A DNA stretch of 64,000 nt from an uncultured Lachnospiraceae bacterium (GTDB taxonomy: Bacteria > Bacillota > Clostridia > Lachnospirales > Lachnospiraceae): positions 9,006-73,005 of the forward strand of contig CAYUYJ010000013.1 in the NCBI GenBank assembly GCA_964449325.1, in the 5' to 3' direction. Both the position numbers and the translations under genes were made by a program. The notes below the pieces were generated by a model. That model was given only the letters and a program-made list of their open reading frames with translations. It was not told the origin of the DNA and searched no databases. Position 1 is the stretch's first letter. Every line of letters starts with the position of its first letter. Below, in pieces: positions 24,146-51,490 of this stretch.

Positions 24146-24673
24146 CTATTGTATAGTTTCTATAATTCCTCTCGCAATTGCATCGGCTGTCTCATAAAAC
24201 TTCGTATCAAAAAGATAATTGTCGGTATCGGAGTTAATAAATCCGACTTCAACCAGCACAGTGGGAATTGACGTTCTCCTCAAAACTACAAGATTCTGCC
24301 GTTCATTAACCCCCTGATTGATAAAGCCGACCTGTTCTAACTGCGCATTAATATTTTCTGCCATCCGTCCTGCCACGCTATATCGATTGTATACCAGGCT
24401 TTCCACGCCGGAATACTGATTCGGATAAGGACTGGAATTACGATGAATCGACACTGCATAATCTGCTCCCGACTCATTAATCATTCTCGCTTTTTCAATA
24501 GGAAGGTCGTACACATCCTCTGTCCTTGTATACAAAACATTTACTCCTGAGCTTTGTAAAATATCACCGATTGCCAATGTCAGTCGAAGATTGTCATCTT
24601 TTTCCATTCTTCCGTTATAGGTTGCACCCCAGTCGGCACCACCGTGTCCTGCATCTAAAATAACTGTTGCCAT
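24146..24673 (-). CDS. N-acetylmuramoyl-L-alanine amidase (Amidase_3 family)
   Basis: 175-aa ORF beginning MATVILDAGHGG, with SIHRNS and later motifs of the zinc amidase fold. Confidence 0.85.
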   Translation of the reverse strand: MATVILDAGHGGADWGATYNGRMEKDDNLRLTLAIGDILQSSGVNVLYTRTEDVYDLPIEKARMINESGADYAVSIHRNSSPYPNQYSGVESLVYNRYSVAGRMAENINAQLEQVGFINQGVNERQNLVVLRRTSIPTVLVEVGFINSDTDNYLFDTKFYETADAIARGIIETIQ

Positions 24674-24826
24674 TCTATACCTCTTGTTTTTTCCTTCTAT
24701 GACAATATATGCAAAACACGAATGGTTGCTATTTCTCTTTTATCACCCGATAGATTTATTCAACAATTTTATCCACTAATGCTTCTATATGAATCTTCAT
24801 GGTGTCCAGACATGGTATCGGACAAT
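24673..24826. repeat. left direct repeat (DR-L) of the accessory island
   Basis: This 154-nt copy matches 38384-38538, with 5 substitutions and a T6/T7 length difference by my manual alignment. It corresponds to the racemase 3' end plus the racemase-amidase spacer. Confidence 0.9.
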
Positions 24827-26868
24827 GCATCCTTAATGGCAGTACGGGCTTCTGCAAGCTTTGTGCCCTTAGCCTCATTGTAGTTGCTGGCTATCAATGC
24901 GTTACTGGCATTCATTTCAGGCACAGTGCTTCCGGATGCTGTCTCACCAGCCGAAGCTGCAGCTTCAACTGTTGTTGTGGACATTTGATAAAAGGTATAG
25001 TTTGGAACTTCCTTGGTGTAGCAGTGATAGGTACGCTTGTAGTCATCCTCACAATAGCGGAACTGCATGTTAACAATGTACTGGTTACCACCCATAGAAA
25101 CAAATAAGTCTTCAGTGGTAGGAGTTCCCGCCATTGCTTCATACTTCTCGGCGTCAAGTCCTCCCTGTTTTATCTGAGCAAACGGGCCTTCGATAACTTG
25201 CTGGAAAGTATAAGTCTTTTTGTCGCCAGTAGAGTATACAATCCAGTGGCAGCTCTCATTAGTTAACGGAACAGACTGCCCTCCTGCTCTGACATTGACG
25301 TCCATAGCATAAGCAACGGAAAGCATACCGTTGTCATTAAGACTTGGTCCAAGCATATCTGTAGCTAGGTCGAAAGTTTTTGTCTCGTTCTCCAGTGCTT
25401 CAAAGAACTCCGCTTTGCTTAGCGTAATCTCCTGAGTAAAGCTACCTGTAGAATTGTGGATACCGTTTCCTGTACGAGTCTTTCCACTACTCTTTATTTT
25501 ATCTACATTTGTGGTAAAGCTGTTCTGTCCTAAGTGATAGGTTTTGATTTCCAGAGTCGCTGTGTCTGCTCCAAGACTATTGAACCAACTTTCCCATAGA
25601 GCATAGTTCTCCTGTGCAATGCACAATTCTCCCACGTCATTGGAATAGTCCGGTTTTTCACTGGTGTAAACAATCTGGTCTTCACAGTAACCTGCACTGT
25701 TAGGAATAGCATATTGAGCATTGATGTGCCAGTCAAAGTATCCGGTAGGAATCCCTGCGACTCCGGCTCCCCCAATAGTAACAATAGTACAACCATTGAT
25801 ACCTTTTTCTGAGCCGCCGGCAGATAGAGTCTGCCATGCTGTCTGTGCCCAGAGAGAACGTGTTCCGGAACTAGGCAAGAATTTGATTGTGCCGGGTTTC
25901 CATGTGGTAGCGAAGAATCGCTTTACCCAACGATAAGGCCATGTATCGTAGTCGTTTGTTCCGCTGTCATAGCCACAGAGACTGGCGATTGCCTTGTCCG
26001 TAAGTGAAGTGACTGTTCCGCCATAAGCATTCAAATCTGTTGTCAGAAGTGCTTCGTAAGCGGTCTGTCCGCCAATACGTAGACACATGTCAGATGGTGC
26101 TGCGAAGTAATTGGCACCATCGCCAACAACGACACCGCAGACTTCAATGACGATTACGACCGGGTGCGTGGAAGCGCTGCCGGAAGTAAGCTCGCTCTGC
26201 CACAGCTGGTAGAGCCCTTGATTGATTCCGTCAAGGGAAGCAAGTTCGGACATGAGGGCGTCGATGACGCCAGCCTCCGGCACAATGTAGAGGGAACCGT
26301 CGTCACGAGCAGCAACGTTGACTCCATCCGGAGTATTCGTGTATATGCATTGCAAAACCTTTTCAGCAGTAGAACCGGCAGGCGCGGTGACGCAGGCATG
26401 TCCACGGTAATCTTCGGTAGCAAGGGAAGTTCCGTGTCCATAAACGAATGAGGCTCCCTGCGTAGCAACATAGTATTTGGCACCGTATTGCTGAACAGCT
26501 AAGGCTTTGGAATCTATGTCGTTAGCGTAGACAACGTCTTCATTTGTGAGCTGTGCAAGTCCCATACGGAATACCAAGGCGTTGCTGCCATCACTGTCGG
26601 CGGCAGTGAATCCTGCCTTGGAGTTGGATTTATTCTTACCTCGTACGGAAGTATCATTGGCACCAGCTGTGGATGTGGAAGCATCAGCGGGGAGTGAGTC
26701 GGTTTCTTCGAGGAACGTAATATCGTTATTCATCTCTTCATTTTCTTGTTCTGCCTGTTTTTTACTCTCTTCCCAAGCTGGCTCTTGTCCTAAAGCATAA
26801 GCGGTAATACATGCTAAAACAAATATACAAGATAGTCCTATTGCGATTATTTTCTTTATATTCTTCAA
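24769..26868 (-). CDS. secreted protein of unknown function
   Basis: 699-aa ORF with a signal-peptide-like N-terminus (MKNIKKIIAIGLSCIFVLACITAYALG) and an acidic linker. I recognise no motif. The last 18 codons lie inside DR-L. Confidence 0.7.
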   Translation of the reverse strand: MKNIKKIIAIGLSCIFVLACITAYALGQEPAWEESKKQAEQENEEMNNDITFLEETDSLPADASTSTAGANDTSVRGKNKSNSKAGFTAADSDGSNALVFRMGLAQLTNEDVVYANDIDSKALAVQQYGAKYYVATQGASFVYGHGTSLATEDYRGHACVTAPAGSTAEKVLQCIYTNTPDGVNVAARDDGSLYIVPEAGVIDALMSELASLDGINQGLYQLWQSELTSGSASTHPVVIVIEVCGVVVGDGANYFAAPSDMCLRIGGQTAYEALLTTDLNAYGGTVTSLTDKAIASLCGYDSGTNDYDTWPYRWVKRFFATTWKPGTIKFLPSSGTRSLWAQTAWQTLSAGGSEKGINGCTIVTIGGAGVAGIPTGYFDWHINAQYAIPNSAGYCEDQIVYTSEKPDYSNDVGELCIAQENYALWESWFNSLGADTATLEIKTYHLGQNSFTTNVDKIKSSGKTRTGNGIHNSTGSFTQEITLSKAEFFEALENETKTFDLATDMLGPSLNDNGMLSVAYAMDVNVRAGGQSVPLTNESCHWIVYSTGDKKTYTFQQVIEGPFAQIKQGGLDAEKYEAMAGTPTTEDLFVSMGGNQYIVNMQFRYCEDDYKRTYHCYTKEVPNYTFYQMSTTTVEAAASAGETASGSTVPEMNASNALIASNYNEAKGTKLAEARTAIKDALSDTMSGHHEDSYRSISG

Positions 26869-26887
26869 TTTATTAGGCTCCTTTCGT

Positions 26888-26895
26888 TGAAAAAG
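26888..26895. repeat. IS66 target-site duplication, left copy (TGAAAAAG)
   Basis: The identical 8-mer abuts both IS ends. An 8-bp TSD is the IS66-family norm. Confidence 0.85.
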
Positions 26896-27037
26896 GTAAG
26901 CGCTTAAATTTTGCCCGGATAGAATAATCCTCAGAAATCTTTCATAATGGAGTTAGTGTTGTAGTCTTTTGCTACGACTCGAAACTCAAGTGTTCTGTAT
27001 GTTAGACACTTTTACTACGATTATGGAGGATTCTATT

Positions 27038-27457
27038 ATGGCAAGATTTCAAAGCCCTCGCCGTTCTGACGAAGAATGGTTCCAACTCATCAACGAATGC
27101 CGCAGAAGCGGCCTGTCAGATTCCTTATGGTGTAAGCAGCAGGCCATCCCTGTTTCTTCTTTTTTCTGTGCAGTGCGCAGATTACGGGAAAAGGCATATG
27201 CGCTCCCGGAGCGTGAACGTTCCATTGATATCGTTTCGAATCCGCTTCCTTGTCAGGATGTGGTACGAATTGATATAGAACCGAATCCTTTAACAGTAAA
27301 GGAACCGGAATCTTTGCAGGTAATTCCTGCAACGCACCTTGACAATTCACATACAGTTGAAATAGAAGTTCACGGGATGAACATTCGTATCTTTAATGGT
27401 GTTGACACAGGACTCCTTAAGACAGTCCTTTCTTCTTTGGGAGGTGCCGGATGCTAG
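27038..27457 (+). CDS. tnpA: IS66 accessory protein TnpA (orf1)
   Basis: 139-aa ORF from the ATG preceded by GGAGGA. It has the position and size of IS66 orf1, and its stop overlaps the tnpB start. Confidence 0.8.
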   Translation: MARFQSPRRSDEEWFQLINECRRSGLSDSLWCKQQAIPVSSFFCAVRRLREKAYALPERERSIDIVSNPLPCQDVVRIDIEPNPLTVKEPESLQVIPATHLDNSHTVEIEVHGMNIRIFNGVDTGLLKTVLSSLGGAGC

Positions 27458-27810
27458 GTGATATCTCAGGAGTAAGGGAAATCTACATTGTGACAGGGTA
27501 CACCGATATGAGAAAGTCTTTGGATGGATTATGTGCCATCATCGAAGAGCAGTTCTCTATGAGTGTGTCATCCAGTGCCCTTTATCTTTTTTGCGGGAAG
27601 AAATGTGACCGCATCAAGGCACTCCTTCGCGAGCCTGATGGAATGACTCTTTTGTATAAAAGGCTTTCCGTATCACAGGGAAGGTACCGTTGGCCCAGAA
27701 ACAAATCCGAGGTAAGAAACCTTACCTGGCAGGAGTTTGACTGGCTGATGTCCGGTCTTGATATCGATCAACCCAAGGCAATCAAAGTGGATTACAGTGC
27801 TGCTTCGTAG
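27451..27810 (+). CDS. tnpB: IS66 Orf2-like protein TnpB
   Basis: 119-aa ORF with characteristic IS66 Orf2 sequence (IYIVTGYTDMRKSLDGL..., LYLFCGKKCDRIK). Confidence 0.88.
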   Translation: MLGDISGVREIYIVTGYTDMRKSLDGLCAIIEEQFSMSVSSSALYLFCGKKCDRIKALLREPDGMTLLYKRLSVSQGRYRWPRNKSEVRNLTWQEFDWLMSGLDIDQPKAIKVDYSAAS

Positions 27811-27910
27811 TGTCGAAAAGTACGATGTTTTCGGCATTTTAGGCTATCAAAAATTACTCAAAAGTGGTATAATAAAGACAGTTAAAACCACCGTTTTGAG
27901 GAGAAAAAAA

Positions 27911-29551
27911 GTGGCCAGAAATTCTTTGGAATCCCGTCTCATGGAGCAGAGCGACATGATCATGCAACTGAATAAGACGATCCTTTCTCTGCAGCAGACC
28001 ATAGAGAGTTTCAATGCCAAAGAAGCTGCTATGCTGCAGGAGATACAAACCCTTAAGGAGCAGAATGACTATCTTACCAAGAAGCTCTTTGGGAAATCCA
28101 GCGAAAAGAATCCCTGGGATATGGAAGGTCAGCTCAATCTTTTCAATGAGGTCGAGCAGGAACAGAATACATCATTACTTGAAGAAGAACAGGAAGAAAC
28201 AAAAACCGTTACTTTCACGGTTAAAAAAGGCCGTTCTACCGACAAGGATCGTTATGCAGGTCTTCCTGTAGAAAAAAAGTATCTGGATGTTCCTGAAGAA
28301 GAACGCTTCTGTCCGGATTGTGAGTCACCGCTTTTAGAAATCGGCGAAACCTTCGTACGCAGGGAACTGAAGTTCAAACCTGCATCTTTTAAGGTGGTTG
28401 AGTATTACAGTAAGAACTACAAGTGCCCTAAATGTTCTCCGAACCTGAAAACACCTGTAATCGTACAGGGAAAGGATGGAAGGGCTCATATGCTCCACGG
28501 CATGGCCTCTGCTTCTACTGTTGCCTGGGTGATGTCCCAAAAGTATGTCAATGCGATGCCTCTTTACCGTATCGAAAGAGATTTTAAACAATACGGTGTA
28601 AATATCACCAGAGCAACACTTGCCAACTGGGTCATTCAGAATACAGACCGTTTTTTTTCACCCTTTTATAACTATCTGCATAAGCTGCTGCTAAAACGGG
28701 TCTTTATCATGGCAGATGAAACCGTTGTACAGGTGCTTCATGAAGAAGACCGCAGACCGGAAAGCAAGTCCTACATGTGGATTTTCCGAAGTGGCGAAGA
28801 TGGACAGGAGCCCATCATCCTCTATCAGTATTCTCCCACCAGAGCAGGAGAAACAGCCACGGATTTCCTGGATGATTTTTCAGGATATATCATGTGTGAC
28901 GGATACAGTGGTTACAATAAGCTAAAGAAAGCCAAACGAACCACCTGCTGGTCTCACGTCAGGAGATATCTTCTGGATGCCATCCCCAAAGGAAAAAAGA
29001 TGGACTACACACTGCCTGCTGTACAGGGGGCTATGTATGTAGACAAGCTTTTCCACTTGGAAAAGGAAATCAAAAAGAAGCACAAAAATGACTACGAATC
29101 CATAAAAGCAGCCCGCCTCGAGAAAGAAGTACCTGTTCTGGAGGGCTTTTGGTCGTGGTTTGAGAAACAGCATGCCGTAAAAGGATCCAGAATGGAGAAA
29201 GCCCTTACCTACATCCAAAACAGAAGGTCTGATATGATGACCTATCTGGAGGATGGGCGTTGCAGTTTCTGCAATAACCTAAGCGAAATCGAGGTAAAAC
29301 CCATTGCACTTGGAAGAAAGAATTATCTCTTCTCTGACACTACCGCAGGTGCGGATTCCAGTGCTGTCATTTATTCTCTGGTAGAAACTGCCAAAGCGAA
29401 TGGACTGAACATGTACCATTATCTCTGGTATCTGTTGGAAGAATTGCCCCAAACAGACTTATCAGAAGAAGCCTTTGAAAAGTATCTGCCCTGGAATCCG
29501 GAAGTAAAAACTGCCCTGGAAGAAAAAGCACAAAAACTTCTGGAAGATTAA
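27911..29551 (+). CDS. tnpC: IS66-family DDE transposase TnpC
   Basis: GTG start after GAGGAG. It has an N-terminal leucine-zipper-like helix, a CPDC..CPKC zinc-ribbon, and DDE-region strings MADETVVQV, CDGYSGY and CWSHVRR. Confidence 0.9.
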   Translation: MARNSLESRLMEQSDMIMQLNKTILSLQQTIESFNAKEAAMLQEIQTLKEQNDYLTKKLFGKSSEKNPWDMEGQLNLFNEVEQEQNTSLLEEEQEETKTVTFTVKKGRSTDKDRYAGLPVEKKYLDVPEEERFCPDCESPLLEIGETFVRRELKFKPASFKVVEYYSKNYKCPKCSPNLKTPVIVQGKDGRAHMLHGMASASTVAWVMSQKYVNAMPLYRIERDFKQYGVNITRATLANWVIQNTDRFFSPFYNYLHKLLLKRVFIMADETVVQVLHEEDRRPESKSYMWIFRSGEDGQEPIILYQYSPTRAGETATDFLDDFSGYIMCDGYSGYNKLKKAKRTTCWSHVRRYLLDAIPKGKKMDYTLPAVQGAMYVDKLFHLEKEIKKKHKNDYESIKAARLEKEVPVLEGFWSWFEKQHAVKGSRMEKALTYIQNRRSDMMTYLEDGRCSFCNNLSEIEVKPIALGRKNYLFSDTTAGADSSAVIYSLVETAKANGLNMYHYLWYLLEELPQTDLSEEAFEKYLPWNPEVKTALEEKAQKLLED

Positions 29552-29688
29552 TTTCAAATGTATGTGAATTGTCAAGGTGCCTTGGCCATAGAAATATGGC
29601 CGGGTATTTTTATTTTAAAGAACCGGAAGGTTCATCAAAATCAGAAAATAGTGCTAAGTAGACAAACGGCTAAATTTTAAGCGCTTAC

Positions 29689-29696
29689 TGAAAAAG
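29689..29696. repeat. IS66 target-site duplication, right copy (TGAAAAAG)
   Basis: Identical to 26888-26895. Confidence 0.85.
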
Positions 29697-29723
29697 AGCC
29701 CTCGTATTGAAGACTCTTTATTA

Positions 29724-30590
29724 TTAATATCTTATATAATTTTCAGGTATTTCAGATAATTCTGTATTGTTTACGTTTGTAAGTTCATACTCTAAGTGTA
29801 CTGTACATGTGAGTTCGTCAGTAGAATATCGAACGGTTTGAATTGATATGTATTCACCAGGCGTATCTAAGTACAAATAAATATCAAATGTTAATGAGCC
29901 ATTCTCCGGCTTTAAGGTATCTGCATCAGCATATAAAAACTGAAGAAAAGTTTCTTCTGTATAATCAAGCAAGTTTTCTACATGTAGAGCTGGACGTCCA
30001 TTATACTCTGATACAGAGGATTTTTGAACAACGATAGCGATATCTTCGTCTGTTATTGAAAATAAATCAAAGAATTTTGCATAAGCTAATCGCTTGGTTT
30101 CAGTACCCTCTTTAAAACTTTTCCAATTGACATTAGCAGAATCGATGTAGTTTGTTGCATAAGTACCGTCCTCAAGGAAATAGTGTTTAGCATATGTGTC
30201 GTCTACTAAGTCTTCTTTATCAGCAGTATTCTGCTTTTCTTCCTCTAGGATGTTCCCATCTTCATCTACACTAATCCATGTATCCTCCCAGGTATGGTCG
30301 TCCATAGGATTTCCTTCTGAGTCTGTTCGGTCGGTATAATAGCGTGCTTTCCTGAAAGTATAGGAGTCATAGTCCATATCCCTTACCTGCTCCAAGAAAG
30401 CAACGATTTCTTCCTCTGTCATAGAGAGGGTTTCCTCTTCCTCCGCTGTAGATTCTTCCTCAATCGTAGATTCCTCGATGATAGTCTCTTCCACTGCTAC
30501 AGTAGACTCGGGAACTTCTTCCTCTGCGGTTTTCTCACAAGCTGTGAGGGTTAATGTTAATAATGTTACTAATAATAAATTTTTCTTCAT
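29724..30590 (-). CDS. lipoprotein of unknown function
   Basis: Start taken at MKKNLLLVTLLTLTLTAC (lipobox LTAC). A Glu-rich linker is followed by a ~200-aa domain with no motif I recognise. Confidence 0.7.
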   Translation of the reverse strand: MKKNLLLVTLLTLTLTACEKTAEEEVPESTVAVEETIIEESTIEEESTAEEEETLSMTEEEIVAFLEQVRDMDYDSYTFRKARYYTDRTDSEGNPMDDHTWEDTWISVDEDGNILEEEKQNTADKEDLVDDTYAKHYFLEDGTYATNYIDSANVNWKSFKEGTETKRLAYAKFFDLFSITDEDIAIVVQKSSVSEYNGRPALHVENLLDYTEETFLQFLYADADTLKPENGSLTFDIYLYLDTPGEYISIQTVRYSTDELTCTVHLEYELTNVNNTELSEIPENYIRY

Positions 30591-30728
30591 AATGATTATC
30601 TCCATTTCCCGGTGCAATCCAGAACTGCACCGATTTATTGTTCTATTGATATATGTAATAAAACGGATAATTCCGTTGGGTTTTCATAGGTAGAATTGAG
30701 GGAGTCGTGGGACTCTCTCGTGTTTGGT

Positions 30729-31019
30729 TTATTCTGCTATGTAGGCACCAAATCCGCCACAATTCATAAGAAAAGACATTTGCAATGATTGGAGCTCTTC
30801 CTTGGTCGGATTCTTGTTAGGCAGGTCTATTATTCCATCTACAAGTATCCGGAAGTAAAGCTGTAAAGCTTCTTTTCGAGTAGGTGTGATATCATAGCTG
30901 TCAAGGAACCCTTCAATGTTATTCCAGTCTACATTGTCAGGGTTCTCCGAAAAATACGTCGCTACATCATCAATAATGCGAATAAAGCCTTCAACACCAT
31001 GTCCATTAATTTTCTCCAT
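30729..31019 (-). CDS. hypothetical protein
   Basis: 96-aa ORF from the second ATG (MEKINGHG...), which is preceded by GAGGT. No recognisable motif. Confidence 0.5.
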   Translation of the reverse strand: MEKINGHGVEGFIRIIDDVATYFSENPDNVDWNNIEGFLDSYDITPTRKEALQLYFRILVDGIIDLPNKNPTKEELQSLQMSFLMNCGGFGAYIAE

Positions 31020-31651
31020 ATCATGTACCTCCATATTAAAGTTTTATTGTACTTTAATATAGCGGATGATTGTTTATTCTTGCGGAGTTGAGTTGACACC
31101 CAATCTAAATGATTGACCCTAAATCCTCCATAGAGTTGATTTCTTTTTTCAATTAGCTGCTTTTCTCCTATTAAGCGCTTCATGCAAGTTATTCCTGCTT
31201 TACGGGATTCTGAGCCACCATTAGAATCACAATAGGCTGTGAGCACTATTGGACGAATATTGTATTCAAATATTGCAGTAGCAGTTGTCAATACACAGCA
31301 GTCTGTATCAGCACCTACAATAAAAACATGTTTTGGAAATTCGCCGTCGTTTAACTGACACAATCTTTGGATAAAACTAGAATTGACACAATTATAAATA
31401 TACTTGTCCTCTGTATAGTCCATAGATTTCAACAACCCATCTGGAATAGATCTTTCTTGCTCTGTTTTAAGTCTTGACCAATTAAACATTTTCTCGTACA
31501 TGCTATTATCAGAATTCAAAAAGCGTGTTCCAATAACTACATCAAAAATCTTTGAATCTAGTAATTTTTCAATTTTTTTTTGATAACTCGATAGTATGTT
31601 TGTATCTTGTAAAACCGTTCTGCATATCAACTACAATTAATATGTTTTTCA
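30962..31651 (-). pseudogene. isochorismatase/cysteine-hydrolase family gene, frameshifted in an A9 run
   Basis: The ATG at 31651 gives MKNILIVVDMQNGFTRYKHTIELSKKN*, the typical family N-terminus, and stops at 31568. The long ORF continues in another frame with GADTDCCVLTTA (catalytic-Cys motif). Removing one A from the run at 31572-31580 joins the two frames. Confidence 0.75.
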
Positions 31652-31707
31652 TAAGGAACCCTTTCCTCATTTATTTAAATAATCTACTACCACTGCGCCT
31701 ATTGCTA

Positions 31708-31842
31708 TTACAAGTGTGGTAATAAGAAGTCTGCATCATCTGGGAATCTTCCCAAAGCCGTATCACGCGATTTTAGAAATCTTGCTTTCGCTGTACTAAA
31801 ATTAATAATAGGAATAGTTTCACTTTTAGCTTTGTCTGTCAT
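31708..31842 (-). CDS. small hypothetical protein (44 aa)
   Basis: Hand-translated as MTDKAKSETIPIINFSTAKARFLKSRDTALGRFPDDADFLLPHL. A strong SD (AAGAGGTG) lies 7 nt upstream. It sits just upstream of the hydrolase pseudogene. Confidence 0.4.
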   Translation of the reverse strand: MTDKAKSETIPIINFSTAKARFLKSRDTALGRFPDDADFLLPHL

Positions 31843-31898
31843 AATATTCACCTCTTAGTTTGTTACATTGTATTTAGTAACAAATTATGGTACACTAA

Positions 31899-31928
31899 CC
31901 TCATCAACTGATGTAGCAGTTGATGAGG
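31899..31928 (-). other. perfect 12-bp hairpin downstream of the DUF262 gene
   Basis: CCTCATCAACTG-N6-CAGTTGATGAGG, about 95 nt after the DUF262 stop. No clean U-tract follows, so a terminator role is uncertain. Confidence 0.45.
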
Positions 31929-32021
31929 CACCGAGCAGCTTGTAACAGTTCAAGCAAATTTTGCTCAGAAAGGAGTACATATGTGCACTCAATTCGATTA
32001 CTAGGAGGTACCAAATGGGAA

Positions 32022-33779
32022 TTACACGCGTACTGTTTCATTAGAGTGGCGGACATATTTTACCCCGTTGTAAAAACATGTTTCACCTATATTTTTGCTT
32101 TTAAATACAAGCAATTCTGTATCGTGGTAATCAAAAGGCTCGAAAGTCTCCAGAATGTACTCTTTAAGCTTTTCTGAAATAGGTTCGGTGTCTAGAAGCT
32201 TCCGTATGCGTCTGTAGTAAGAATCAGTACTGCCACATAATTTCTCAGCTTCTTTTGTTATACCCGGTATATAATGCTGGTTATTAATTAAAGCCTGCTC
32301 TTTGTAAGTACTGTACCAGCTATCATAGGCTTCTTTTGAATCAGCAACACCTAAAACAACTAATCCCTCCTCTTTGGCGCTAGTGGTGTTCGCCATTGCG
32401 ACAAGGGTTTTTGCTATATCGTGAATTACATTCATGTTGACAGATGTAGAAGAAAAATCAGATATACCGACTTTAAATTCTGTCATCTGCCTTTCAATTT
32501 TGGAGTAACCTAATCGTTTGTCTATTTCATCCTGTAGTTCACTATGTTTCTTTGCAATCTGCTTAACAAACGCCGGACGAAGTAGTTTATAGACTATATC
32601 TATTGTTTTGCTTACTTGAGCGTAATCAATCCGGGAGCTTTTTGTAAAAGCATCAAAACTGCCTGCTGCATCTTTTATTGCATTAGCTACCTCTTGATAA
32701 TTCGAAATTACAAACCCTTCTTCCAGCAGTCTGTACACTGCTATAAAAAGAACTTTAAAACATTCGTCTTTATTGCTTACGCGCCGGCTGCTAAATAGAA
32801 AAGATGAAAAATCAGAATTTACTGAGTCGAAAACCATATCTATTGTATCAAAGGTTTTCCTGAATTTGTTTTCCAGATTATCTTTGCCAAGTTCTGAAAT
32901 CCGATTCTCAATCTGGTTGTTCAGGATGGTACCTTTTTCGTACAGCTGGTCTAAACGGTCTTTACTCTTCTTAAAGTCTTTCAATAGAATCATAGCAAAT
33001 AAAGTCTCTATGATTTCTTCATCTTTAGACTCTTTGATATTCTGCGGGTCGATAAGATCATGCCTTCTCCAGAAGACTGCATCCAAGTCAACTCCATAAC
33101 CATACTGTTTATAGCCGACACTAATTTTAGGTATATCGCATAAGCAAATATGGTCATCGTAAGTATGGTCTAAGCGCACATCACTTGCTACGCGTCTAAC
33201 CAAATCAGGAAACTCTCCGACTGCCTTAGACTGTCTCAAATCATGTGAGGAGATTTGTCTTCCAGTTGAATTTATCCTACTGAATATCATATCCACAGTA
33301 GCATTATCCTTACCTGTTATTATAGCAGGAATCTGATATCTGCAGAATTCAATGCACAATTCTTTCGGCAGCAGTCTATCATGCTTCTTTAACTGCTTGT
33401 CCTGATTCATGAGCAGTTGAAATGTTTCATTATTAGCATTAGGGTCAAAGTAACAGTTTTCGTTGTTGTATTCAATTGAGAACTCTCCCAATACAAACGA
33501 GATAATAGCATTGAGTCGCTGCATTCCGTCGACTATCTCGAGAATGTTTCTTTTATTCTCAGAAGGAACATCATATTTAACCAAAAGAATTGCAGGCAAG
33601 GGTATTTCTCTAATCATGGAATCGATAAGGAGTCTTTTTTCATCGATTCCCCATACTAACTTTCTCTGGTATCTACGGTTAACATAAAACAGATTCTGTA
33701 CGTAATTAGCTATTATGTCATTTACAGTATATTTTTCTACAGTTAATGTGTTGCTCATAGTACGGTCACTCCAATTCAT
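32022..33779 (-). CDS. DUF262 (ParB/Srx-like NTPase) - AlbA_2/Schlafen-like fusion protein, defence-type
   Basis: Start taken at MNWSDRT (GGAGG SD 7 nt upstream), giving 585 aa. The N-terminus has DUF262 strings (RRYQRKLVW..., EIVDGMQRLNAI, the DGQQR-type motif). The C-terminal ~150 aa has the AlbA_2 pattern (MTEFKVGI..., IAKTLVAMANT, GLVVLGVAD, KYVRHSNETV). I see no DUF1524 His-Me nuclease motif. Confidence 0.8.
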   Translation of the reverse strand: MNWSDRTMSNTLTVEKYTVNDIIANYVQNLFYVNRRYQRKLVWGIDEKRLLIDSMIREIPLPAILLVKYDVPSENKRNILEIVDGMQRLNAIISFVLGEFSIEYNNENCYFDPNANNETFQLLMNQDKQLKKHDRLLPKELCIEFCRYQIPAIITGKDNATVDMIFSRINSTGRQISSHDLRQSKAVGEFPDLVRRVASDVRLDHTYDDHICLCDIPKISVGYKQYGYGVDLDAVFWRRHDLIDPQNIKESKDEEIIETLFAMILLKDFKKSKDRLDQLYEKGTILNNQIENRISELGKDNLENKFRKTFDTIDMVFDSVNSDFSSFLFSSRRVSNKDECFKVLFIAVYRLLEEGFVISNYQEVANAIKDAAGSFDAFTKSSRIDYAQVSKTIDIVYKLLRPAFVKQIAKKHSELQDEIDKRLGYSKIERQMTEFKVGISDFSSTSVNMNVIHDIAKTLVAMANTTSAKEEGLVVLGVADSKEAYDSWYSTYKEQALINNQHYIPGITKEAEKLCGSTDSYYRRIRKLLDTEPISEKLKEYILETFEPFDYHDTELLVFKSKNIGETCFYNGVKYVRHSNETVRV

Positions 33780-33791
33780 AATGATACCTCC

Positions 33792-33819
33792 ATTATAGCT
33801 TAATATATTATTTTGTAAA
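33792..33819 (-). promoter_or_regulatory. putative sigma-A promoter of the DUF262 gene
   Basis: The minus strand reads TTTACA-N16-TATAAT, and the -10 element ends 1 nt before the GGAGG SD. The region is AT-rich, so a chance match is possible. Confidence 0.35.
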
Positions 33820-33925
33820 TATAATGTTTTCCGTAGACATTGTCTCTGAATTAAAGAGAGTCGCTGCACACGTAGCATAAAAGTATTTACATATTGAGCA
33901 CATACTACTTTGTGTCGAACAAGCT

Positions 33926-33950
33926 GGGTACTAGTAACTTACTAGTACCC
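33926..33950. other. 25-nt near-perfect palindrome (12-bp arms)
   Basis: GGGTACTAGTAA-C-TTACTAGTACCC, followed on the plus strand by TTTCGCTTTAT. Confidence 0.6.
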
Positions 33951-34045
33951 TTTCGCTTTATAATTAATAGCGACAATTGAGACGCTACTGCTGACTTCTC
34001 AGCATAAATAAATTTGTAAAGGGGTACTTTTACCCTTCTTGCGGT

Positions 34046-34099
34046 GCTTATGCCAGGCATTACAGCTTTGGCTGTAATTGCAACGATTGTTGTGAAATG
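34046..34099. repeat. island repeat copy 1 (~55-nt element)
   Basis: GCTTATGCCAGGCATTACAGCTTTGGCTGTAATTGCAACGATTGTTGTGAAATG. It contains a perfect 8-bp dyad ATTACAGC/GCTGTAAT and the CAACGATTGTTG palindrome. Confidence 0.8.
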
Positions 34100-34164
34100 T
34101 GCCTGTTTTTAAAATTAAAATAAGCAATGCCATAGCCAGTGGATTTTCTTATTATGAGGCGCTT

Positions 34165-34219
34165 GATTATGTGTTGGTGTTACAGCTTTAGCTATAATTG
34201 CAACAATTGTTGTGAAATG
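34165..34219. repeat. island repeat copy 2
   Basis: GATTATGTGTTGGTGTTACAGCTTTAGCTATAATTGCAACAATTGTTGTGAAATG, 119 nt after copy 1. Confidence 0.8.
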
Positions 34220-34285
34220 CATACAAACTAAAAGGGGAAGGAATTCGTAGGGTATGCGCATGCCCAATGAATAGCCCTTCTGTTT

Positions 34286-34324
34286 GATTATGCGTTGGTA
34301 TTACAGCCTTAGCTATACAATGTT
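34286..34324. repeat. island repeat copy 3 (truncated/diverged)
   Basis: GATTATGCGTTGGTATTACAGCCTTAGCTATACAATGTT, 121 nt after copy 2. Confidence 0.7.
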
Positions 34325-34478
34325 ATCTACGGGAGCTTGCACTCCCATCATAGATACAGGAGGCAGATAGGGACAGCCCTCTTACTCATTGTCGAAGAAT
34401 ACAATAGAAACTTCTTAATACCTGTGACATAAACACTGCAAGAAAGATAAAAGATATTTTAGTAATACAGCATAGCTT

Positions 34479-34506
34479 GGATACCTATGCGAGCACATAG
34501 GTATCC
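34479..34506. other. perfect 11-bp stem hairpin
   Basis: GGATACCTATG-CGAGCA-CATAGGTATCC within the ORF-poor region. Confidence 0.6.
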
Positions 34507-34586
34507 AACTTGAATCCGCTGCTCTGTAAAAGAACTCAATACAATAAGATTTACAGTGCGGAACGCTGCAACTACATTTTAAAGGG

Positions 34587-34615
34587 GCTGGTAAGTTACC
34601 AGCTCTTTCCTTTTT
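34587..34615 (+). terminator. intrinsic-terminator-like hairpin plus T-tract (plus strand; possibly bidirectional)
   Basis: GCTGGTA-AGT-TACCAGC followed by TCTTTCCTTTTT on the plus strand. On the minus strand it lies 60 nt after the stop of the hexapeptide-repeat gene, with only a weak U-tract. Confidence 0.5.
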
Positions 34616-34662
34616 AGAGAATGACATATTACAAAACCTTTTCAAAAATTTGTCATCGGTAA

Positions 34663-35166
34663 TTAGGACAAAAGTGCTTTAAGTGCTGTGTTTACAGCCT
34701 CTTTGAACGCTTCATCGTCCAGTTCATTAATGCATGTAGGCATATAAAGAGCTGCATTGCTGACTAATTCAGTAATGTACGTAACGAATCGGTCGTCAGA
34801 CGTTATACTCAGCAGAGTCGCAGCGTTGTCTAAGTTGAGCTCACCAGAATTCTGAGTAGGCGCACTCTGTCCCAATAGTTTGGCTAGGTCACTATCTGTA
34901 CTTATATCAACACTGCCGTCAACTATAATATTTTCGCCAATATGCACATTACCATGCACTTTAGCATTTCCATGGACGATAGCAAATCCATGAACATGTG
35001 CACTTCCATAAACATGTGCGACTCCATAAACCTGAGCCTTTCCATAAATCTCAGCATCTCCAGAGACGCAAGCAAATCCACAGACATACGCATTCTCAGA
35101 AACCCGGGCATTCTTGGCAATATTCTGTACAGAATCTGCAGTTGATGAAGTGTATTTTATAATCAT
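34663..35166 (-). CDS. hexapeptide-repeat (left-handed beta-helix) protein with His/Tyr ladder
   Basis: Eleven consecutive 6-residue repeats: NARVSE NAYVCG FACVSG DAEIYG KAQVYG VAHVYG SAHVHG FAIVHG NAKVHG NVHIGE NIIVDG. A helical C-terminal ~70 aa follows. The start is uncertain (ATG 35166 or 35190, neither with a good SD). The upstream part of the tracked 248-aa ORF is judged spurious. Confidence 0.55.
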   Translation of the reverse strand: MIIKYTSSTADSVQNIAKNARVSENAYVCGFACVSGDAEIYGKAQVYGVAHVYGSAHVHGFAIVHGNAKVHGNVHIGENIIVDGSVDISTDSDLAKLLGQSAPTQNSGELNLDNAATLLSITSDDRFVTYITELVSNAALYMPTCINELDDEAFKEAVNTALKALLS

Positions 35167-35188
35167 TAACAAAGAAAGGAGGAAAAGC

Positions 35189-35485
35189 ATGGATAGTATT
35201 TCCAAGGACAAAAGTGAGCTTAAAGTAATTGCCACAGGGATTTTCGTGATTTTGTATCTTTGCACTGTAATAACAGCTGCCGATAAGCTACCCCTAGCTA
35301 TTGGCATTGCACTCTCGTTTACGAATATTATTAGTGCATCAATACTTTGCTGGATTGTAAGTATTACGTTTAAGCATTTACAAAATTTGTGGATATACCA
35401 ATTATCCAAACGCGTGTACTATGCAGCATTGTTGTTCTCAATGGCATTTGTTCCGTTTACTGTATCTCTTAATATTGGTAATTGA
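35189..35485 (+). CDS. small three-TM membrane protein
   Basis: 98-aa ORF (MDSISKDKSELK then three hydrophobic helices) with a strong AAAGGAGG SD 5 nt upstream. It is antisense to the 5' extension of the beta-helix ORF. Confidence 0.55.
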   Translation: MDSISKDKSELKVIATGIFVILYLCTVITAADKLPLAIGIALSFTNIISASILCWIVSITFKHLQNLWIYQLSKRVYYAALLFSMAFVPFTVSLNIGN

Positions 35486-35692
35486 TACGACACTGAACAG
35501 CTTATTTCAATTATCATTTCCTAGGCACATCTAATCTGGTTAGGTGTGTGTCTTTGTGCTTTCACGCTTATTTTTCATTTGATTTAATTAAGACTTTATT
35601 ACTCCAATTATATATGTACTATATGCCCAAAATTTGGCGTTCCTTTACGACTTAAATAGGGAAGACCATAAGCCTTCCCTGTAATCTTTGTC

Positions 35693-36070
35693 TTATCTTT
35701 TCCGTTGCTCCAACGTAGGCCGGAGCACATTGATGTCCCTGAAATACTCTAAATCCTCTCCCTCAAACCGTATCCACAAATCATCGCGATTCGTATGCCC
35801 GTGAGTGCATTTCACAATGTCGAAAGGATTATACTGAGTCAATCCCATAGACGCAAGGATTTCCTCTTTATCTGGTCTTCCTTCCTCAAAACATCTGTCT
35901 CTGAATTTATTCAAGACTGACTGTATTGTTTTTGGACGTCTGCCAAGAAACTTATAAGGTATCTCATCAGTAAACTCTTGGCAAGTAACCTCTTTGGTTT
36001 CTCTGTTTACCTCAACATGAGCCACTACAGTATTGATAAGCATCCAATCAAATATTAGCATCTTTTCCAT
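35693..36070 (-). CDS. HipA-kinase-associated small protein (possible detached HipA N-terminal-like module or antitoxin)
   Basis: 125-aa ORF whose start overlaps the HipA-like gene end by 16 nt, suggesting translational coupling. No HTH motif is evident. Confidence 0.6.
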   Translation of the reverse strand: MEKMLIFDWMLINTVVAHVEVNRETKEVTCQEFTDEIPYKFLGRRPKTIQSVLNKFRDRCFEEGRPDKEEILASMGLTQYNPFDIVKCTHGHTNRDDLWIRFEGEDLEYFRDINVLRPTLEQRKR

Positions 36071-36828
36071 GCAATACCCTCCGTTTCTGACAACGCTCTT
36101 AGAACTGTCTTTAGAGCACGTACACTCATTCTGTCACTGAAGTTCACGCTGTTGACAAAATCATCATAGTGCAACTCCAATAACCTATTGTTTACCAGAT
36201 TACGTGGGAAGTCTGTGTAAAATGGTTTTGCTGATATACTGCGGTAGTTCGTGTCAAAGTCTACCTCTAGCGGATATGAAAGCACATCCGACATGCAAGC
36301 TGCTCCATTATCAAAAATAGGAGCGGGTGAGTATTTGCCATCGGAGTAGAGGAAAGAAATATTTTTAAAATGTCGGTCATCATTTCTGGTCATAGCATCG
36401 ACACAGAGTATTGTGTCGATATAACTTTTTACATCAAATCCAACAATGCCAAATAAATAATCTCTCAAGTCATCATAGGAAATGGAATAGGATTGCAAGC
36501 CTTCATCCAGCAAATTCGCTACTGTCATTTCCACAGCATCTCCGACAAAATCTTGAGAATAACAACCAGAGCCAATCCTTTTTCCGTCCTCGTATATTAG
36601 GCACGCGCGGTACTTCACATAATCTTTCTCTGATAAGTCTGTAAAACTCAATAGGTGAGAGACGAGCACTTCTGCAGTATTCTCGTACCCTAAGCAATTC
36701 AATTTCACAAATTTATCGTTATGTTTCCATTTTATCTGATTGCCTAATGAGCTACTGAAGGCATCTAATCGCTCAGAACTTTTAACATGTATGATAGGTA
36801 AAGCATTAATACTAATATCTTCTAACAT
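36055..36828 (-). CDS. HipA-like Ser/Thr kinase core (short form)
   Basis: 257-aa ORF with a GxQxK-type loop (SLGNQIKWK), a HipA_C catalytic-loop-like TRNDDRHFKNISFL, and an APIFDNGAA Mg-binding-like motif. It lacks the ~150-aa N-terminal domain of canonical HipA. Confidence 0.75.
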   Translation of the reverse strand: MLEDISINALPIIHVKSSERLDAFSSSLGNQIKWKHNDKFVKLNCLGYENTAEVLVSHLLSFTDLSEKDYVKYRACLIYEDGKRIGSGCYSQDFVGDAVEMTVANLLDEGLQSYSISYDDLRDYLFGIVGFDVKSYIDTILCVDAMTRNDDRHFKNISFLYSDGKYSPAPIFDNGAACMSDVLSYPLEVDFDTNYRSISAKPFYTDFPRNLVNNRLLELHYDDFVNSVNFSDRMSVRALKTVLRALSETEGIAWKRC

Positions 36829-37122
36829 GTAACAATCTCCTTTCAGTTACCCAAATAATATTTTGGTCTGTCGCTTCAACAAGCATATCCTCGAAATCAA
36901 AATATAAAGCCGGCTTATCCTCTAACATAATGTATGTAGGCATTCACTCTCTGTATGGGTATTCACTGCAGTGCACGTAGTAACTTTTCTCTTTGGAGTC
37001 TCAGACAGCATAAACTCTAAACAAGTCAGCCAATCATTATCTTCACCGAATTCACTCTCAATAACGCCAAAACCATAGAGCTATTTTAGAACAATAGCCT
37101 CTTACATCTTTAAATTTCAACG

Positions 37123-37917
37123 TCATACTTCTACCTCTTTCCTTGCAAGCTGAATAGCCGGGTATATGTCTTCTACGTCCATAGAACCATAACAACTAGG
37201 CAGTAAAGACAAGAACTTTTCTTTCTGCTCAGCTGTATAGTCCCTAGTAATATGCTCTATATACACTTCTGTTTGAGATGTAGTAACTTCTTGAGCCACA
37301 AGCAGAACACAGTACTTCTGCATAAAGGAAATAAGTGCTGTGTCATCTGCTGTCTCATAGTAACGTACCAACAGCGTTTTGAACTCTCCAATACGTTCAA
37401 TAGGAACTTGGAATATGCCGATGTTGTTCTGTATTAGCACCTTATTAGCTATAAGCTGTGCAACTCTTTTATTGCCGTCAATAAACATTTGAGTACGTGC
37501 TACATAGCAGAAATACTTCAAGGCACGCAACGTAATGTCCGGAATCTGCTCGATAGCATTTAAAGCATCCAGAATGATTCCGGTATTGGGTATCTCAGGT
37601 TCCCATGTAGTACCACCAATTCTTACCGGTAGCGTTCTGATTGCACCTGCATCATGAAATAGCATGGCACCAACAATCTTATTGTATTCGCGCAATAGCA
37701 TAAGGCTATTGTCGTAGTCGATATTATCCAAAAGAAACTGCCATGCACGTTTCATGTTAATGATAAAGAGCACTTCTTCACTTGTAGTTGTGGTAGGTAC
37801 ATTAAGCAGTATCTCCTCTGTCTTAGGAAATGTTGTTCCAAGTCCCTCTAAGTTAGCACTCTTCCAGATACTATCGACTAAAAGTCTTTTTGCCATTGCA
37901 ATTGCTGAGTCTTTCAT
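37123..37917 (-). CDS. Fic/Doc-family protein with degenerate active-site motif
   Basis: 264-aa ORF from the ATG after GAGGTG. It has an N-terminal inhibitory-helix-like SANLEG ([S/T]xxxE[G/N]). The Fic core reads QMFIDGNKRVAQ instead of HxFx[D/E]GNGRxxR, with Gln (CAA, 37489-37491) in place of the catalytic His. Confidence 0.75.
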   Translation of the reverse strand: MKDSAIAMAKRLLVDSIWKSANLEGLGTTFPKTEEILLNVPTTTTSEEVLFIINMKRAWQFLLDNIDYDNSLMLLREYNKIVGAMLFHDAGAIRTLPVRIGGTTWEPEIPNTGIILDALNAIEQIPDITLRALKYFCYVARTQMFIDGNKRVAQLIANKVLIQNNIGIFQVPIERIGEFKTLLVRYYETADDTALISFMQKYCVLLVAQEVTTSQTEVYIEHITRDYTAEQKEKFLSLLPSCYGSMDVEDIYPAIQLARKEVEV

Positions 37918-38130
37918 AATGTACACCTCACATTCCTAATCGAATACATTTTAACAGAATTCTCTAATAGAGTAAAGACAGCGATTTTCACTAGAGAGTA
38001 GCGTCTACCTCCTCAAGCTTACTTTGCATACAAAAAGCAATAGTCTATGTCCGGAATCCAGTTGTCCTTAATTAGATAATCGACGACCTTTTTGATTTTC
38101 AATCTTCTCACCTTCTTTCTACATCCATTA

Positions 38131-38173
38131 CCCCAAAAAAGGTAAAAAAATAGCCCCTACTTTCGTAAGGGCT
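38131..38173 (-). terminator. intrinsic terminator just inside the island right end
   Basis: The minus strand reads AGCCCTTAC-GAAA-GTAGGGGCT followed by ATTTTTTTACCTTTTTTGGGG. It would stop read-through from the racemase gene into the island. Confidence 0.65.
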
Positions 38174-38383
38174 TGCCGATGAATCGCCAGATTCACCATA
38201 ACTGAATCAATTTTTACCGGTCAGTCGCCAGACCAACCATATCTGTATGCTTATCGTACATCGATATTATATGAAAAGTCAAATATTTTATGAACTATTC
38301 CTACATGCTATAACAACATATATTCACACAGGATTCCACAAAAACTATTGATGGATTGGCAGCTTGCATCCTGCAATCTTCCT

Positions 38384-38538
38384 TTCTATACCTCTTGTTT
38401 TTTTCCTTCTATGACAATATATGCAAAACACGAATGGTTGATATTCCTCTTTTATCACCCGATAGATTTATTCAACAATCCTATCCACTAATGCTTCTAT
38501 ATGAATCTTCATGGTATCCAGACATGGTATCGGACAAT
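38384..38538. repeat. right direct repeat (DR-R) of the accessory island
   Basis: This 155-nt copy contains the last 71 nt of the racemase ORF plus 84 nt downstream. Confidence 0.9.
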
Positions 38539-39160
38539 TCTCATCATTCAATGCCAACGGAAGTTCGGTACATCCAAGTACAATCGCTTCAATCCCGTCC
38601 CTTGTCTGCATATTCCTGATAACATCAAGCAGTTCCTGTCTTGTGGATTCCCTGACAATTCCCATCTCCAGTTCATTCGTAATTCTGTCATTTACCAGTT
38701 CCATCGTTTTTTCCGAAGGTGTCACAATTTCTATCCCCTGCCTTATAAACGGCTCCTTAAAAAAATCTCCCTTCATGGTAAATATGGTTCCCAAAAGACC
38801 GATTTTTCTCAATTTTCTTCGTTTTGCTTCCTCACAGACCACCTCCACGATACTTACCAGCGGAATCGGAGATTGCTTCTCTAATGAATCAAACACAATG
38901 TGCAATGTATTCGCTGACAACGCTGCAAATTCCGCACCGCCTCTTGCAAGGTTATGGATTGCCTGCAAAAGATACGCTGTCAATTCTTCATATTTTTCTT
39001 CCCGGCAATAAGACAATGCCCGATAAAGATTAATACTCTCTATGGAAAACTCCGGAAATTGTTTTCCGTCAGTTCCGGTATTTACCATGTGATTAATCTC
39101 CCGATAATAAACCAAAGTGGACTCCGGTCCTGTTCCGCCTACTAAGCCTAATTTTTTCAT
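38468..39160 (-). CDS. aspartate/glutamate-family amino-acid racemase (aspartate racemase-like)
   Basis: Start taken at MKKLGLVGGTGPEST (GGAGG SD), giving 230 aa. It carries both catalytic-Cys-region signatures of the Asp/Glu racemase family (GGTGPEST..., VLGCTELPL). Confidence 0.85.
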   Translation of the reverse strand: MKKLGLVGGTGPESTLVYYREINHMVNTGTDGKQFPEFSIESINLYRALSYCREEKYEELTAYLLQAIHNLARGGAEFAALSANTLHIVFDSLEKQSPIPLVSIVEVVCEEAKRRKLRKIGLLGTIFTMKGDFFKEPFIRQGIEIVTPSEKTMELVNDRITNELEMGIVRESTRQELLDVIRNMQTRDGIEAIVLGCTELPLALNDENCPIPCLDTMKIHIEALVDRIVE

Positions 39161-42848: not shown

Positions 42849-44149
42849 TCAACCAATCAGTACGGTTTTTCCTTCAAAGGCAAAGCCATAGCTGCGGATA
42901 TTTTCTCTTGAAATACCACGTGTCATCAACTGCGAAGCATACTGTTTTTCCTCTATCTGTAAAAGCGCTGCCTGTACGGTTTTTTCCAAACTTTCTTCTT
43001 TTTTCTTGTTTCTGACCTTAAACTCAAGAATGATGGCATCATCCTCACCCGGATTTACAGGCTCCAGCATCACATCATATCTGCCAAAACCACTCTCTTT
43101 ATTGGAACTGATGATATATTTCCCTTGCAAATCCACCAGAAGTCCGAGGACAAACCCATGATAAAACCGCTCAGGTTCCTCACCGGATGGTTCTTTTCCC
43201 GTGTCAAAATAACTGAATGTTTTGAGTGCCACACGGTTCATATAAGAATTCATGGCTTCCAAATCATCCTGCAGCAAAGCTTTGATAAAATCATTATAAT
43301 CCTCTTCCGCTTCCATAAACCAGTCATGAATCATATTACGGAACATCAGTCTGACCTCCAGATTGGTCAATGTAAGCTGATATTTTGGCAACGTTCCCTC
43401 CGGAATGTCACGGTAGCTTTCATAGGAAAGCACCTTTAAATATCCGCCGGCTAACAGAAGACTCCACACTGCCCTCTCATTGCCGTTCAATTGATTATAA
43501 ACAATCTGCTCGTCAATGACTGACTGAATACTCTCTCCACGAAGCAATACCTCAAACTTCTCTTTTATCTTTCGATTGCCTTCCCGCAAAAGCTTGCCTG
43601 CCAGGCTATTGGAACTGGTATTTGCCCAGTAAGTGGTATAATTTCCCTTATCCAGAAAGTTCAGAATAGACCATGGGTTATAAATCTCCTTATGCTCTCC
43701 AAAGATAAAGCCGTCATACCACCGCTTCACCTGCTCCTTTTCCTTGGAAAGTCCGCATTCCTCCAAAGCGGCAAACACTTCGCTCTCTGTAAAACCAAAG
43801 GAAGTGGCATACTTATCTGCCTCCGTCATCCATTCGCAATTCCTTACATATGCATACTTAATATATAAATCAACAAGCAACTGGCATATTCTGTCTTTTG
43901 TTGCCTGATAGTCTCTCTCCTTCACCGTAGCAAAGGACAGACTGATAACCGGATATGTTCCCTGCAGTTCTCTATATTTCTCCTCCTTCCAGATGGAAAG
44001 TCCTTCAAATACCTCTCTATGTTCTGCATAATCAACAGAAAAAAACTGTTCCACCATTCCTTAATAAAAGAGGTTTTATCAATATAAAAACAATTCTTTT
44101 GTATCAAATCTCCAAAATTTTGTATTCCGATTGCCACAGTTCTTGCCAT
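42849..44149 (-). pseudogene. AAA-ATPase-like/PD-(D/E)XK (DUF1703-type) family gene with internal deletion and frameshift
   Basis: The N-terminal fragment MARTVAIGIQNFGDLIQKNCFYIDKTSFIKEWW (ATG 44149, GGAGG SD) runs out of frame. The main ORF resumes at MVEQFFSVDY... in another frame. The segment that in family members carries RPRRFGKS/T is absent. The junction sits on the 9-mer ATGGTGGAA (44049-44057). Confidence 0.6.
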
Positions 44150-51466: not shown

Positions 51467-51490
51467 TTGTTTCCTCCGTCTGTCTCTTCC

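Follow-up and report, generated by a model that had tools for sequence, protein, structure and literature searches.

We analysed a stretch of 64,000 nucleotides (the window) from an uncultured Lachnospiraceae bacterium (assembly GCA_964449325.1, contig CAYUYJ010000013.1, positions 9,006 to 73,005), in which an accessory island at positions 24673-38538 of the window separates a gene of the aspartate/glutamate racemase family from an N-acetylmuramoyl-L-alanine amidase gene. The racemase, the amidase and nearly all genes of the island lie on the minus strand. The island is bounded by direct repeats of 154 and 155 bp that duplicate the 3' end of the racemase gene together with the spacer that follows it, and it is best read as an eroded, immobile accessory remnant in a strain-variable hotspot of toxin and defence genes. 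As to its origin, the explanation we favour, at a probability of roughly 55%, is an old site-specific integration at the racemase-amidase junction, of the type known from the prophage e14 in the Escherichia coli icd gene, followed by decay.

The left and right direct repeats (DR-L, 24673-24826; DR-R, 38384-38538; both given here on the minus strand) differ by five substitutions and one run-length difference, T6 versus T7, which reads as A6/A7 on the coding strand. Alignment with MAFFT, a repeat search and BLAST of the window against itself all bear out this pair, which the initial annotation, made from the sequence alone, had aligned by hand. In the self-BLAST, positions 24670-24826 match 38381-38538 over 158 columns with 95.6% identity (E = 2e-66), and this is the sole high-identity repeat in the 64 kb. 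The spacing from start to start is 13,712 nt, with an interior of 13,557 nt between the repeats. No identical core longer than 42 nt is present between the two copies, and the 36-nt invariant core gave 0 matches in the JGI metagenomes and IMG/VR. Inside the island, no decayed homology to the racemase or the amidase was found beyond the repeats themselves. A possible 'LPL' extension of the racemase homology upstream of DR-L was considered and rejected, being too short to count.

Each repeat holds sequence that belongs to the other side of the island. DR-R consists of the last 71 nt of the racemase gene (38468-38538) and an 84-nt copy of the spacer (38384-38467). It thereby completes the racemase gene (38468-39160, minus strand; 230 aa; Asp_Glu_race, 7e-40), whose end at 38468 agrees with the initial description of this repeat, and its sequence is identical across 6 of 6 other racemase-side contigs. 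DR-L consists of a second racemase 3' end, displaced and out of use, and an 83-nt spacer. As had also been noted at the outset, this spacer runs directly into the ATG of the amidase gene at 24673 and bears its ribosome-binding site, AGAGG. The amidase (24146-24673, minus strand; 175 aa; Amidase_3, 3e-41) is a core gene. When the outer 71 nt of DR-L are translated in the racemase frame they read CPIPCLDTMKIHIEALVDKIVE*, with one synonymous change and one AGG>AAA codon change (R>K) relative to the real C-terminus; as judged from this translation, the sequence in DR-L is native to the racemase. The amidase-proximal ~45 nt of the spacer are conserved before the amidase ATG in sister species (amidase 84-89% identical), with the consensus TGCATAyATTrT.ATAGAAG..AGAGGT, and DR-R thus carries amidase-native sequence. 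Both repeats are, then, duplicates of one formerly contiguous racemase-spacer-amidase junction. Removal of the interior and one repeat would rebuild that junction, a prediction of the initial annotation that the conservation of the spacer and the racemase-frame translation now back.

Repeats of a target-gene 3' end at both ends of an insertion, with one of them completing the gene, are the arrangement of e14 and phage 21 in icd (for e14, see PMC13626634). There, too, the target is the 3' end of a gene that encodes a protein; this gene is made whole by one of the copies, and the displaced 3' fragment is found at the far end. Our computation for E. coli MG1655 places the last 165 nt of icd inside the prophage and a 165-nt copy, icdC, ~93% identical, at its other end; the homology between icd and icdC extends beyond the stop codon for ~45 nt and takes in the terminator. 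The likeness to e14 thus extends to repeats of ~150-165 nt that are 93-96% identical, to differences that are mostly silent or conservative, and to homology beyond the stop codon. The e14 prophage has retained intE/xisE and phage genes, and SOS induction leads to its excision; in the island, by contrast, no recombinase or phage gene was found, neither an excised nor an empty form was seen, and the junction at the far end cuts a gene.

The course of events that we propose is the following. A foreign element carrying its own copy of the target 3' end and of the sequence downstream would have integrated site-specifically at the 3' end of the racemase gene. What was duplicated is ~155 bp of the junction, namely 71 nt of the racemase 3' end and the whole spacer; one copy completes the racemase, and the amidase is fed by the other. 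Deletion would later have removed the recombinase and the original left end, and the island would since have been altered by further deletions, by the replacement of modules in its interior, by homologous exchange among strains and by one insertion of an IS66-family element. In its present form the island would not be autonomously mobile, with RecA recombination between the repeats as the sole remaining route of loss. The initial annotation had likewise proposed an integration that replaced the 3' end of the gene. The duplication of the junction, the foreign cargo and the e14 precedent all sustain that proposal; the lack of an empty site, a truncated left end and a second island version whose joint also cuts a gene do not.

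The truncation of the left end is apparent from an open reading frame (ORF) of 699 aa (24769-26868, minus strand) that matches no Pfam family and has a GC content of up to 0.50. This ORF crosses the outer edge of DR-L, and its final 17 codons run out of frame through the racemase copy. In an all-against-all HMMER comparison, 55 relatives of the ORF were found. Leaving fragments aside, these relatives measure 981-3,547 aa, and the 699-aa query aligns only to about their first 600-730 residues, from which it follows that the gene has lost its 3' part. The left junction thus reads as a truncation joint and not as the natural end of an element, and, with the gene truncated at the edge of DR-L, the original repeat may have been longer. 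The ORF itself amounts to an N-terminal domain of ~650 residues with a signal-peptide-like N-terminus and no match in Pfam, NCBIfam or PHROG; domains of this type head very large proteins (981-3,547 aa) that are seen only in metagenome assemblies (P0128, P0276-P0299). No relative of the 699-aa protein was found in IMG/VR.

Mobility genes were sought by Pfam scans that covered every ORF of 100 aa or longer in the island and, in the rest of the 64-kb window, most of those with 130 aa or more. In agreement with the initial annotation, the island contains no integrase, relaxase, excisionase or phage structural gene, and the only recombinase detected in the window is the DDE transposase of the IS66 element. 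There are no long ORFs in the non-coding gaps of the island. Neither an oriT nor a packaging gene was found in it, and the island shows none of the hallmarks of an integrative and mobilizable element (IME), namely an integrase of its own together with an oriT, relaxase or hijacking module. An Rfam search of 23-40 kb at E up to 1 returned nothing, and the window contains no tRNA or tmRNA.

To compare strains, we retrieved contigs of the same species by exact-protein look-ups, which yielded 13 contigs from 11 samples, 96.8-100% identical to the window; this is a small sample and consists of assemblies only. The species is rare in public data, and the flank of one contig (L001, SRR14160763) is 100% identical to that of the window. 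The seven amidase-side contigs all have their start within the spacer, at 29-78 nt ahead of the ATG. Among the racemase-side contigs, three stop ~34 nt past the stop codon and three (L006, L015 and L019) continue into the Fic side of the island. The k = 31 Logan contigs break precisely where the 31-mers found in just one copy of the repeat begin or end, which is how a de Bruijn assembler behaves at a repeat. The repeat is present in every sample that could be judged. An empty site, that is, a racemase joined directly to the amidase, which the initial annotation had suggested looking for in relatives, was not seen in any of these 13 contigs. The initial annotation had also stated what would speak against it, namely relatives that all carry the same island with no empty-site allele; the empty site is indeed missing from these contigs, but the content of the island varies.

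At least three versions of the island can be distinguished in these assemblies: that of the window, that of L015 and L005, and that of P0287. The second version, that of L015 (ERZ27271044), shares with the window the stretch from the MatE gene to position 35564, which takes in the racemase, DR-R, the Fic gene, the HipA-like gene and the adjoining 125-aa gene. Beyond this point it has a ParE/Phd pair that is absent from the window, and then a fragment (83 nt) of the 125-aa gene that differs at its 5' end. This fragment is joined without a gap to the spacer (...ACTG|ATCGGGTG), at a point 4 nt beyond the position of the racemase stop codon. Thus, the ParE/Phd pair and the truncated duplicate of the 125-aa gene (L015, 7159-8074) stand in place of window positions 35563-24827. 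L005, from the same sample, begins at exactly that base and continues into the amidase, and in three further samples the racemase contigs end at the last 31-mer before ATCGGGTG. It follows from this joint that the left repeat of the second version is the ~80-nt spacer only, with its outer edge again inside a gene. P0287 points to a third version: this 91-aa ORF, on a 1,093-nt contig from ENA, has the same fusion tail as the window, ...TAIKDALSDTMSGHHEDSYRSISG*, and differs from it upstream of residue ~622. Because P0287 shares the tail in which the truncated 699-aa gene is fused to DR-L, the left junction of the window is independently confirmed. Taken together, the gene content between the same flanking genes differs across strains, as in a variable hotspot. 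Two observations stand apart from this comparison: a 13,050-nt Logan contig carries variants of the HipA-like and 125-aa genes (P0251/P0255), and the exact Phd protein occurs on 244 contigs, some very long, which points to a promiscuous cassette.

The divergence between strains, mapped for the window against the L015 group, is uneven. The flank on the racemase side shows one difference per ~75 nt (1.0-1.6%) up to 38614, and the adjoining 38613-36125, which comprises DR-R, non-coding sequence, the Fic gene and most of the HipA-like gene, shows 1 difference in 2.49 kb. Divergence rises to 4.5% in 36124-35570, after which there is no homology. On the other side of the island, divergence is 0.2-0.3% in the amidase and HD genes and 2.3% in the gene after them. 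The single difference in 2.49 kb, next to a flank at 1.0-1.6%, implies that the right-hand module was recently exchanged between lineages. Low-divergence tracts reach the core flanks, as in ordinary homologous exchange, and the pattern does not discriminate between mechanisms. The jump from 0.04% to 4.5% lies within the 3' end of the HipA-like gene and the 125-aa gene, and marks a recombination breakpoint in the toxin module.

The amidase locus was also compared with sister species, in which the synteny downstream of the amidase is kept (a solute-binding protein (SBP), permeases and further genes). Upstream of it, the order is ACPS-amidase in 87% relatives, and at other loci either ACPS-esterase-AraC-amidase or these genes plus DUF6608-LytTR-hydrolase (the latter in L032 too); that is, ACPS and the amidase are separated by zero, two or five different genes. 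None of these upstream genes (ACPS, esterase, AraC, DUF6608, LytTR, hydrolase) occurs in the window, and the whole neighbourhood upstream of the amidase, over at least 39 kb, differs in this species from that in the sister species (L022-L032). The 5' side of the amidase thus appears to be a recurrent site of gene gain and a break in synteny across related Lachnospiraceae. At the sister loci that have gained genes upstream of the amidase, no flank duplication like the 155-bp one was found. In no sister species examined is there a racemase near the amidase, and the racemase-amidase junction is therefore specific to this lineage. GTDB has no representative of this species: among its species representatives the racemase has only 47-64% relatives and no close genome. 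The closest relatives of the racemase (74-77%) are not syntenic.

Several of these observations weigh against site-specific integration. It is the architecture of the repeats alone that suggests such an origin, because no integrase, integrase fragment, excisionase, or phage or conjugation gene remains, and no tyrosine or serine recombinase encoded by the element was found. Neither an unoccupied attB nor an excised form appears in the 13 contigs from 11 samples. Intact ends with a defined crossover core are likewise missing: the outer edge of DR-L is a truncation joint, which hides the original length of the repeat and any core site, and the other version has its joint at ATCGGGTG. Since the junction is species-specific, the element must have acquired its 155 bp from this very lineage. 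With no more than two differing codons, the duplicated coding part offers too little to prove selection. Finally, the middle of the island (35564-24827) is found in one piece only in the contig of the window.

A lineage-specific junction would fit equally well with integration of the Campbell type, an alternative that we consider possible, if clearly tentative. In this scenario, a circle with a captured copy of the ~155-bp junction, arising for example from aberrant excision in a related strain, would have been taken in through one RecA-dependent crossover, an event that by itself yields direct repeats of the homologous segment on both sides and involves no site-specific recombinase. The scans of the window, which revealed none, are in line with it, as is the extent of the repeat, which covers a species-specific junction including the non-coding spacer up to the amidase ATG. 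An illegitimate joint within a gene, such as that at the outer edge of DR-L, is expected where an aberrantly excised circle closes, and at the spacer of the second version there is a further illegitimate joint, where the microhomology amounts to only 2 nt. These truncation joints could equally be later deletions, however, and integrase-mediated elements such as e14 give the same architecture. Moreover, the two copies differ by ~4%, as compared with 0-1.6% between strains, and the captured copy must therefore come from beyond the sampled diversity.

The initial annotation had left open that the island is mobilised in trans. We consider it unlikely that the island is a still-mobile element without a recombinase, IME- or satellite-like, that is moved by an integrase encoded elsewhere with the repeats as attL and attR. 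It is similarly doubtful that the island, or at least the module of DR-R and the Fic and HipA-like genes, still moves through an integrase in trans or through RecA acting on the 80-155-bp junction copy. If it did, the near-identical 2.5-kb block would reflect recent mobility and not ordinary homologous exchange. Recent spread would indeed yield the contrast between this module and the racemase flank, and the architecture of the repeats fits att sites. The 11 samples, however, show neither an empty site nor an alternative location; the core of the repeat is without matches in the JGI metagenomes and IMG/VR; the left ends differ among versions and cut genes; and oriT, relaxase and packaging genes were not found in the island. 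Low divergence also extends into the amidase and HD genes, as in homologous exchange.

Still less probable is a duplication of the junction in situ, through replication slippage or when a staggered break was repaired, foreign DNA having been captured between the copies or independent insertions having followed between two tandem copies, and no mobile element being involved. The repeats do correspond to exactly one contiguous native segment, no mobility genes were found, and the interior is a mosaic of GC blocks. Yet the ~4% divergence of the copies, with conservative changes in the racemase frame, exceeds the divergence between strains, and decay in place would not favour such changes (n = 2 codons); in addition, no repeats of this kind are seen in the sister species where genes were gained at that spot. 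An assembly artefact, that is, a chimeric contig joined through the repeat, is most improbable even though the contig of the window alone spans the whole island and short-k assemblies all break in the repeat, because three independent contigs cross DR-R into the island, seven join the spacer to the amidase, the ENA contig encodes the same fusion tail, and at five sites the alleles of the two copies differ. The reading that we prefer remains site-specific integration with subsequent decay.

By composition, the interior of the island is foreign and mosaic, though nearly all of its genes are co-oriented with the flanks. The GC skew is -0.25 to -0.30 in both flanks and about -0.1 to +0.07 inside the island, and the GC content of the interior ranges from 0.34 to 0.50, in blocks of differing GC, against ~0.39-0.41. 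Its cargo is of the predicted toxin and defence type, with a Fic protein, a HipA_C-like protein, an NsnA-like protein with GmrSD_N and AlbA_2 domains, the PADLOC assignments PDC-M03A and PDC-S04 and, in the variant, ParE/Phd. Profile searches confirmed the Fic/Doc-like, DUF262-AlbA_2 and IS66 genes of the initial annotation, the last as tnpA, tnpB and tnpC.

The Fic/Doc-family gene (37123-37917, minus strand; 264 aa; PADLOC PDC-S04, phrog_11900) is 100% identical in the second version of the island. Next to it is a HipA_C-like gene of 257 aa (36055-36828; PADLOC PDC-M03A) that overlaps the 125-aa gene (35693-36070), the pair spanning 35693-36828 on the minus strand. The HipA_C score, 27.9 bits, lies under the Pfam cut-off of 30.5. 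Thus, the split HipA-like gene described initially holds as two overlapping ORFs with a HipA_C-like, sub-threshold match; the split is not a fresh frameshift, since the two-ORF layout is kept in other strains. The GmrSD_N (DUF262) and AlbA_2 protein (32022-33779, minus strand; 585 aa from the second ATG; PADLOC NsnA, 2e-26) is a candidate nuclease-type defence gene.

Some other parts of the interior are probably degraded. A partial ORF of the isochorismatase family (30729-31630, minus strand), which matches positions 44-164 of the profile only and overlaps a 101-aa ORF, would correspond to the frameshifted hydrolase that was initially reported and is probably degraded. The non-coding stretch at 33879-34662 (0.8 kb) contains degenerate repeats spaced by ~120 nt and no ORF of at least 80 aa save the tail of the neighbouring DUF262 ORF. 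Two of its repeat units (34060-34099 and 34180-34219) are 93% identical and a third is weaker, while TRF found nothing in the stretch at 33.8-34.7 kb; it is probably a decayed repeat-containing gene. It adjoins a 248-aa ORF (34663-35409, minus strand; start doubtful) with a short beta-helix-like repeat and weak matches to Bactofilin and phrog_7964. Further to the left lies a gene for a predicted lipoprotein of 288 aa (29724-30590, minus strand) whose family is unknown.

The IS66-family element (26896-29688, plus strand) is intact, with tnpA, tnpB and tnpC. Its ends are GTAAGCG-type terminal inverted repeats (GTAAGCGCTTAAA...), and an 8-bp target duplication, TGAAAAAG, is perfect (26888-26895 and 29689-29696); these features are those of its family. 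Because the target duplications are perfect, the element is a later simple insertion, and the idea that it had carried in the 699-aa gene was rejected on the same grounds. The region gave no match among the plasmids of PLSDB. The exact TnpB protein is found on 291 contigs of public assemblies, and this IS66 element is thus widespread and probably active.

Between DR-R and the Fic gene lies a non-coding segment (38140-38383, minus strand) with a terminator-like hairpin (38173-38152) and a 35-nt imperfect direct repeat (38173-38207 and 38214-38248; 74% identical), the copies of which begin ATGGT..TCTGGCGA. Two 17-mers in this segment had been put forward as possible arm or core sites of a recombinase; they do belong to a real repeat, the 35-nt one, but nothing indicates that they are such sites. 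An imperfect dyad reported beside DR-R was not found. The 160 nt around the 35-nt repeat fold stably (z = -4.3), largely by virtue of the hairpin, and have no Rfam match; the region 38140-38300 (minus strand) could be a small RNA or a leader of the Fic/HipA-like module.

Outside the island, a protein like PD-(D/E)XK_9 and AAA ATPases (42849-44057) adjoins the MatE gene. The region 46249-57806 of the window contains paralogous hybrid histidine kinases and response regulators, one of them a DegV fusion, with internal repeats of 70-85%.

Among known systems, the island resembles grounded or decayed genomic islands and IMEs in its att-like direct repeats, in carrying cargo only, and in its erosion by deletions and the insertion of an IS element. 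By definition, IMEs keep an integrase and usually an oriT or relaxase; unlike them, the island was found to have neither. It also resembles defence hotspots between core genes, in that toxin and defence cargo differs from strain to strain at one chromosomal position. Hotspot #37 of E. coli and the core defence hotspots of Pseudomonas aeruginosa hold varied cargo of this kind at a fixed position, often with no recognisable mobility genes (PMC10121019, PMC10250203). Those hotspots, unlike the present locus, rest on hundreds of genomes and are not marked by a long duplication of the flank, as compared with ~11 metagenome samples and a 155-bp duplication here.

Nothing at the locus points to a new mechanism; this is an ordinary kind of decayed accessory island that lacks a recombinase. 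It provides a clean example of an att-like flank duplication outliving the recombinase that made it. At the same time, it illustrates that long direct repeats alone do not prove a mobile element, for the comparison of strains gave truncation joints, several versions and no empty site. The cargo may be of interest for the cataloguing of defence systems, namely the NsnA-like GmrSD_N/AlbA_2, Fic and HipA_C-like modules and the N-terminal domain of giant unannotated proteins. The main value of the finding lies in annotation: the locus marks a variable toxin and defence hotspot in an uncultured gut species of the Lachnospiraceae.

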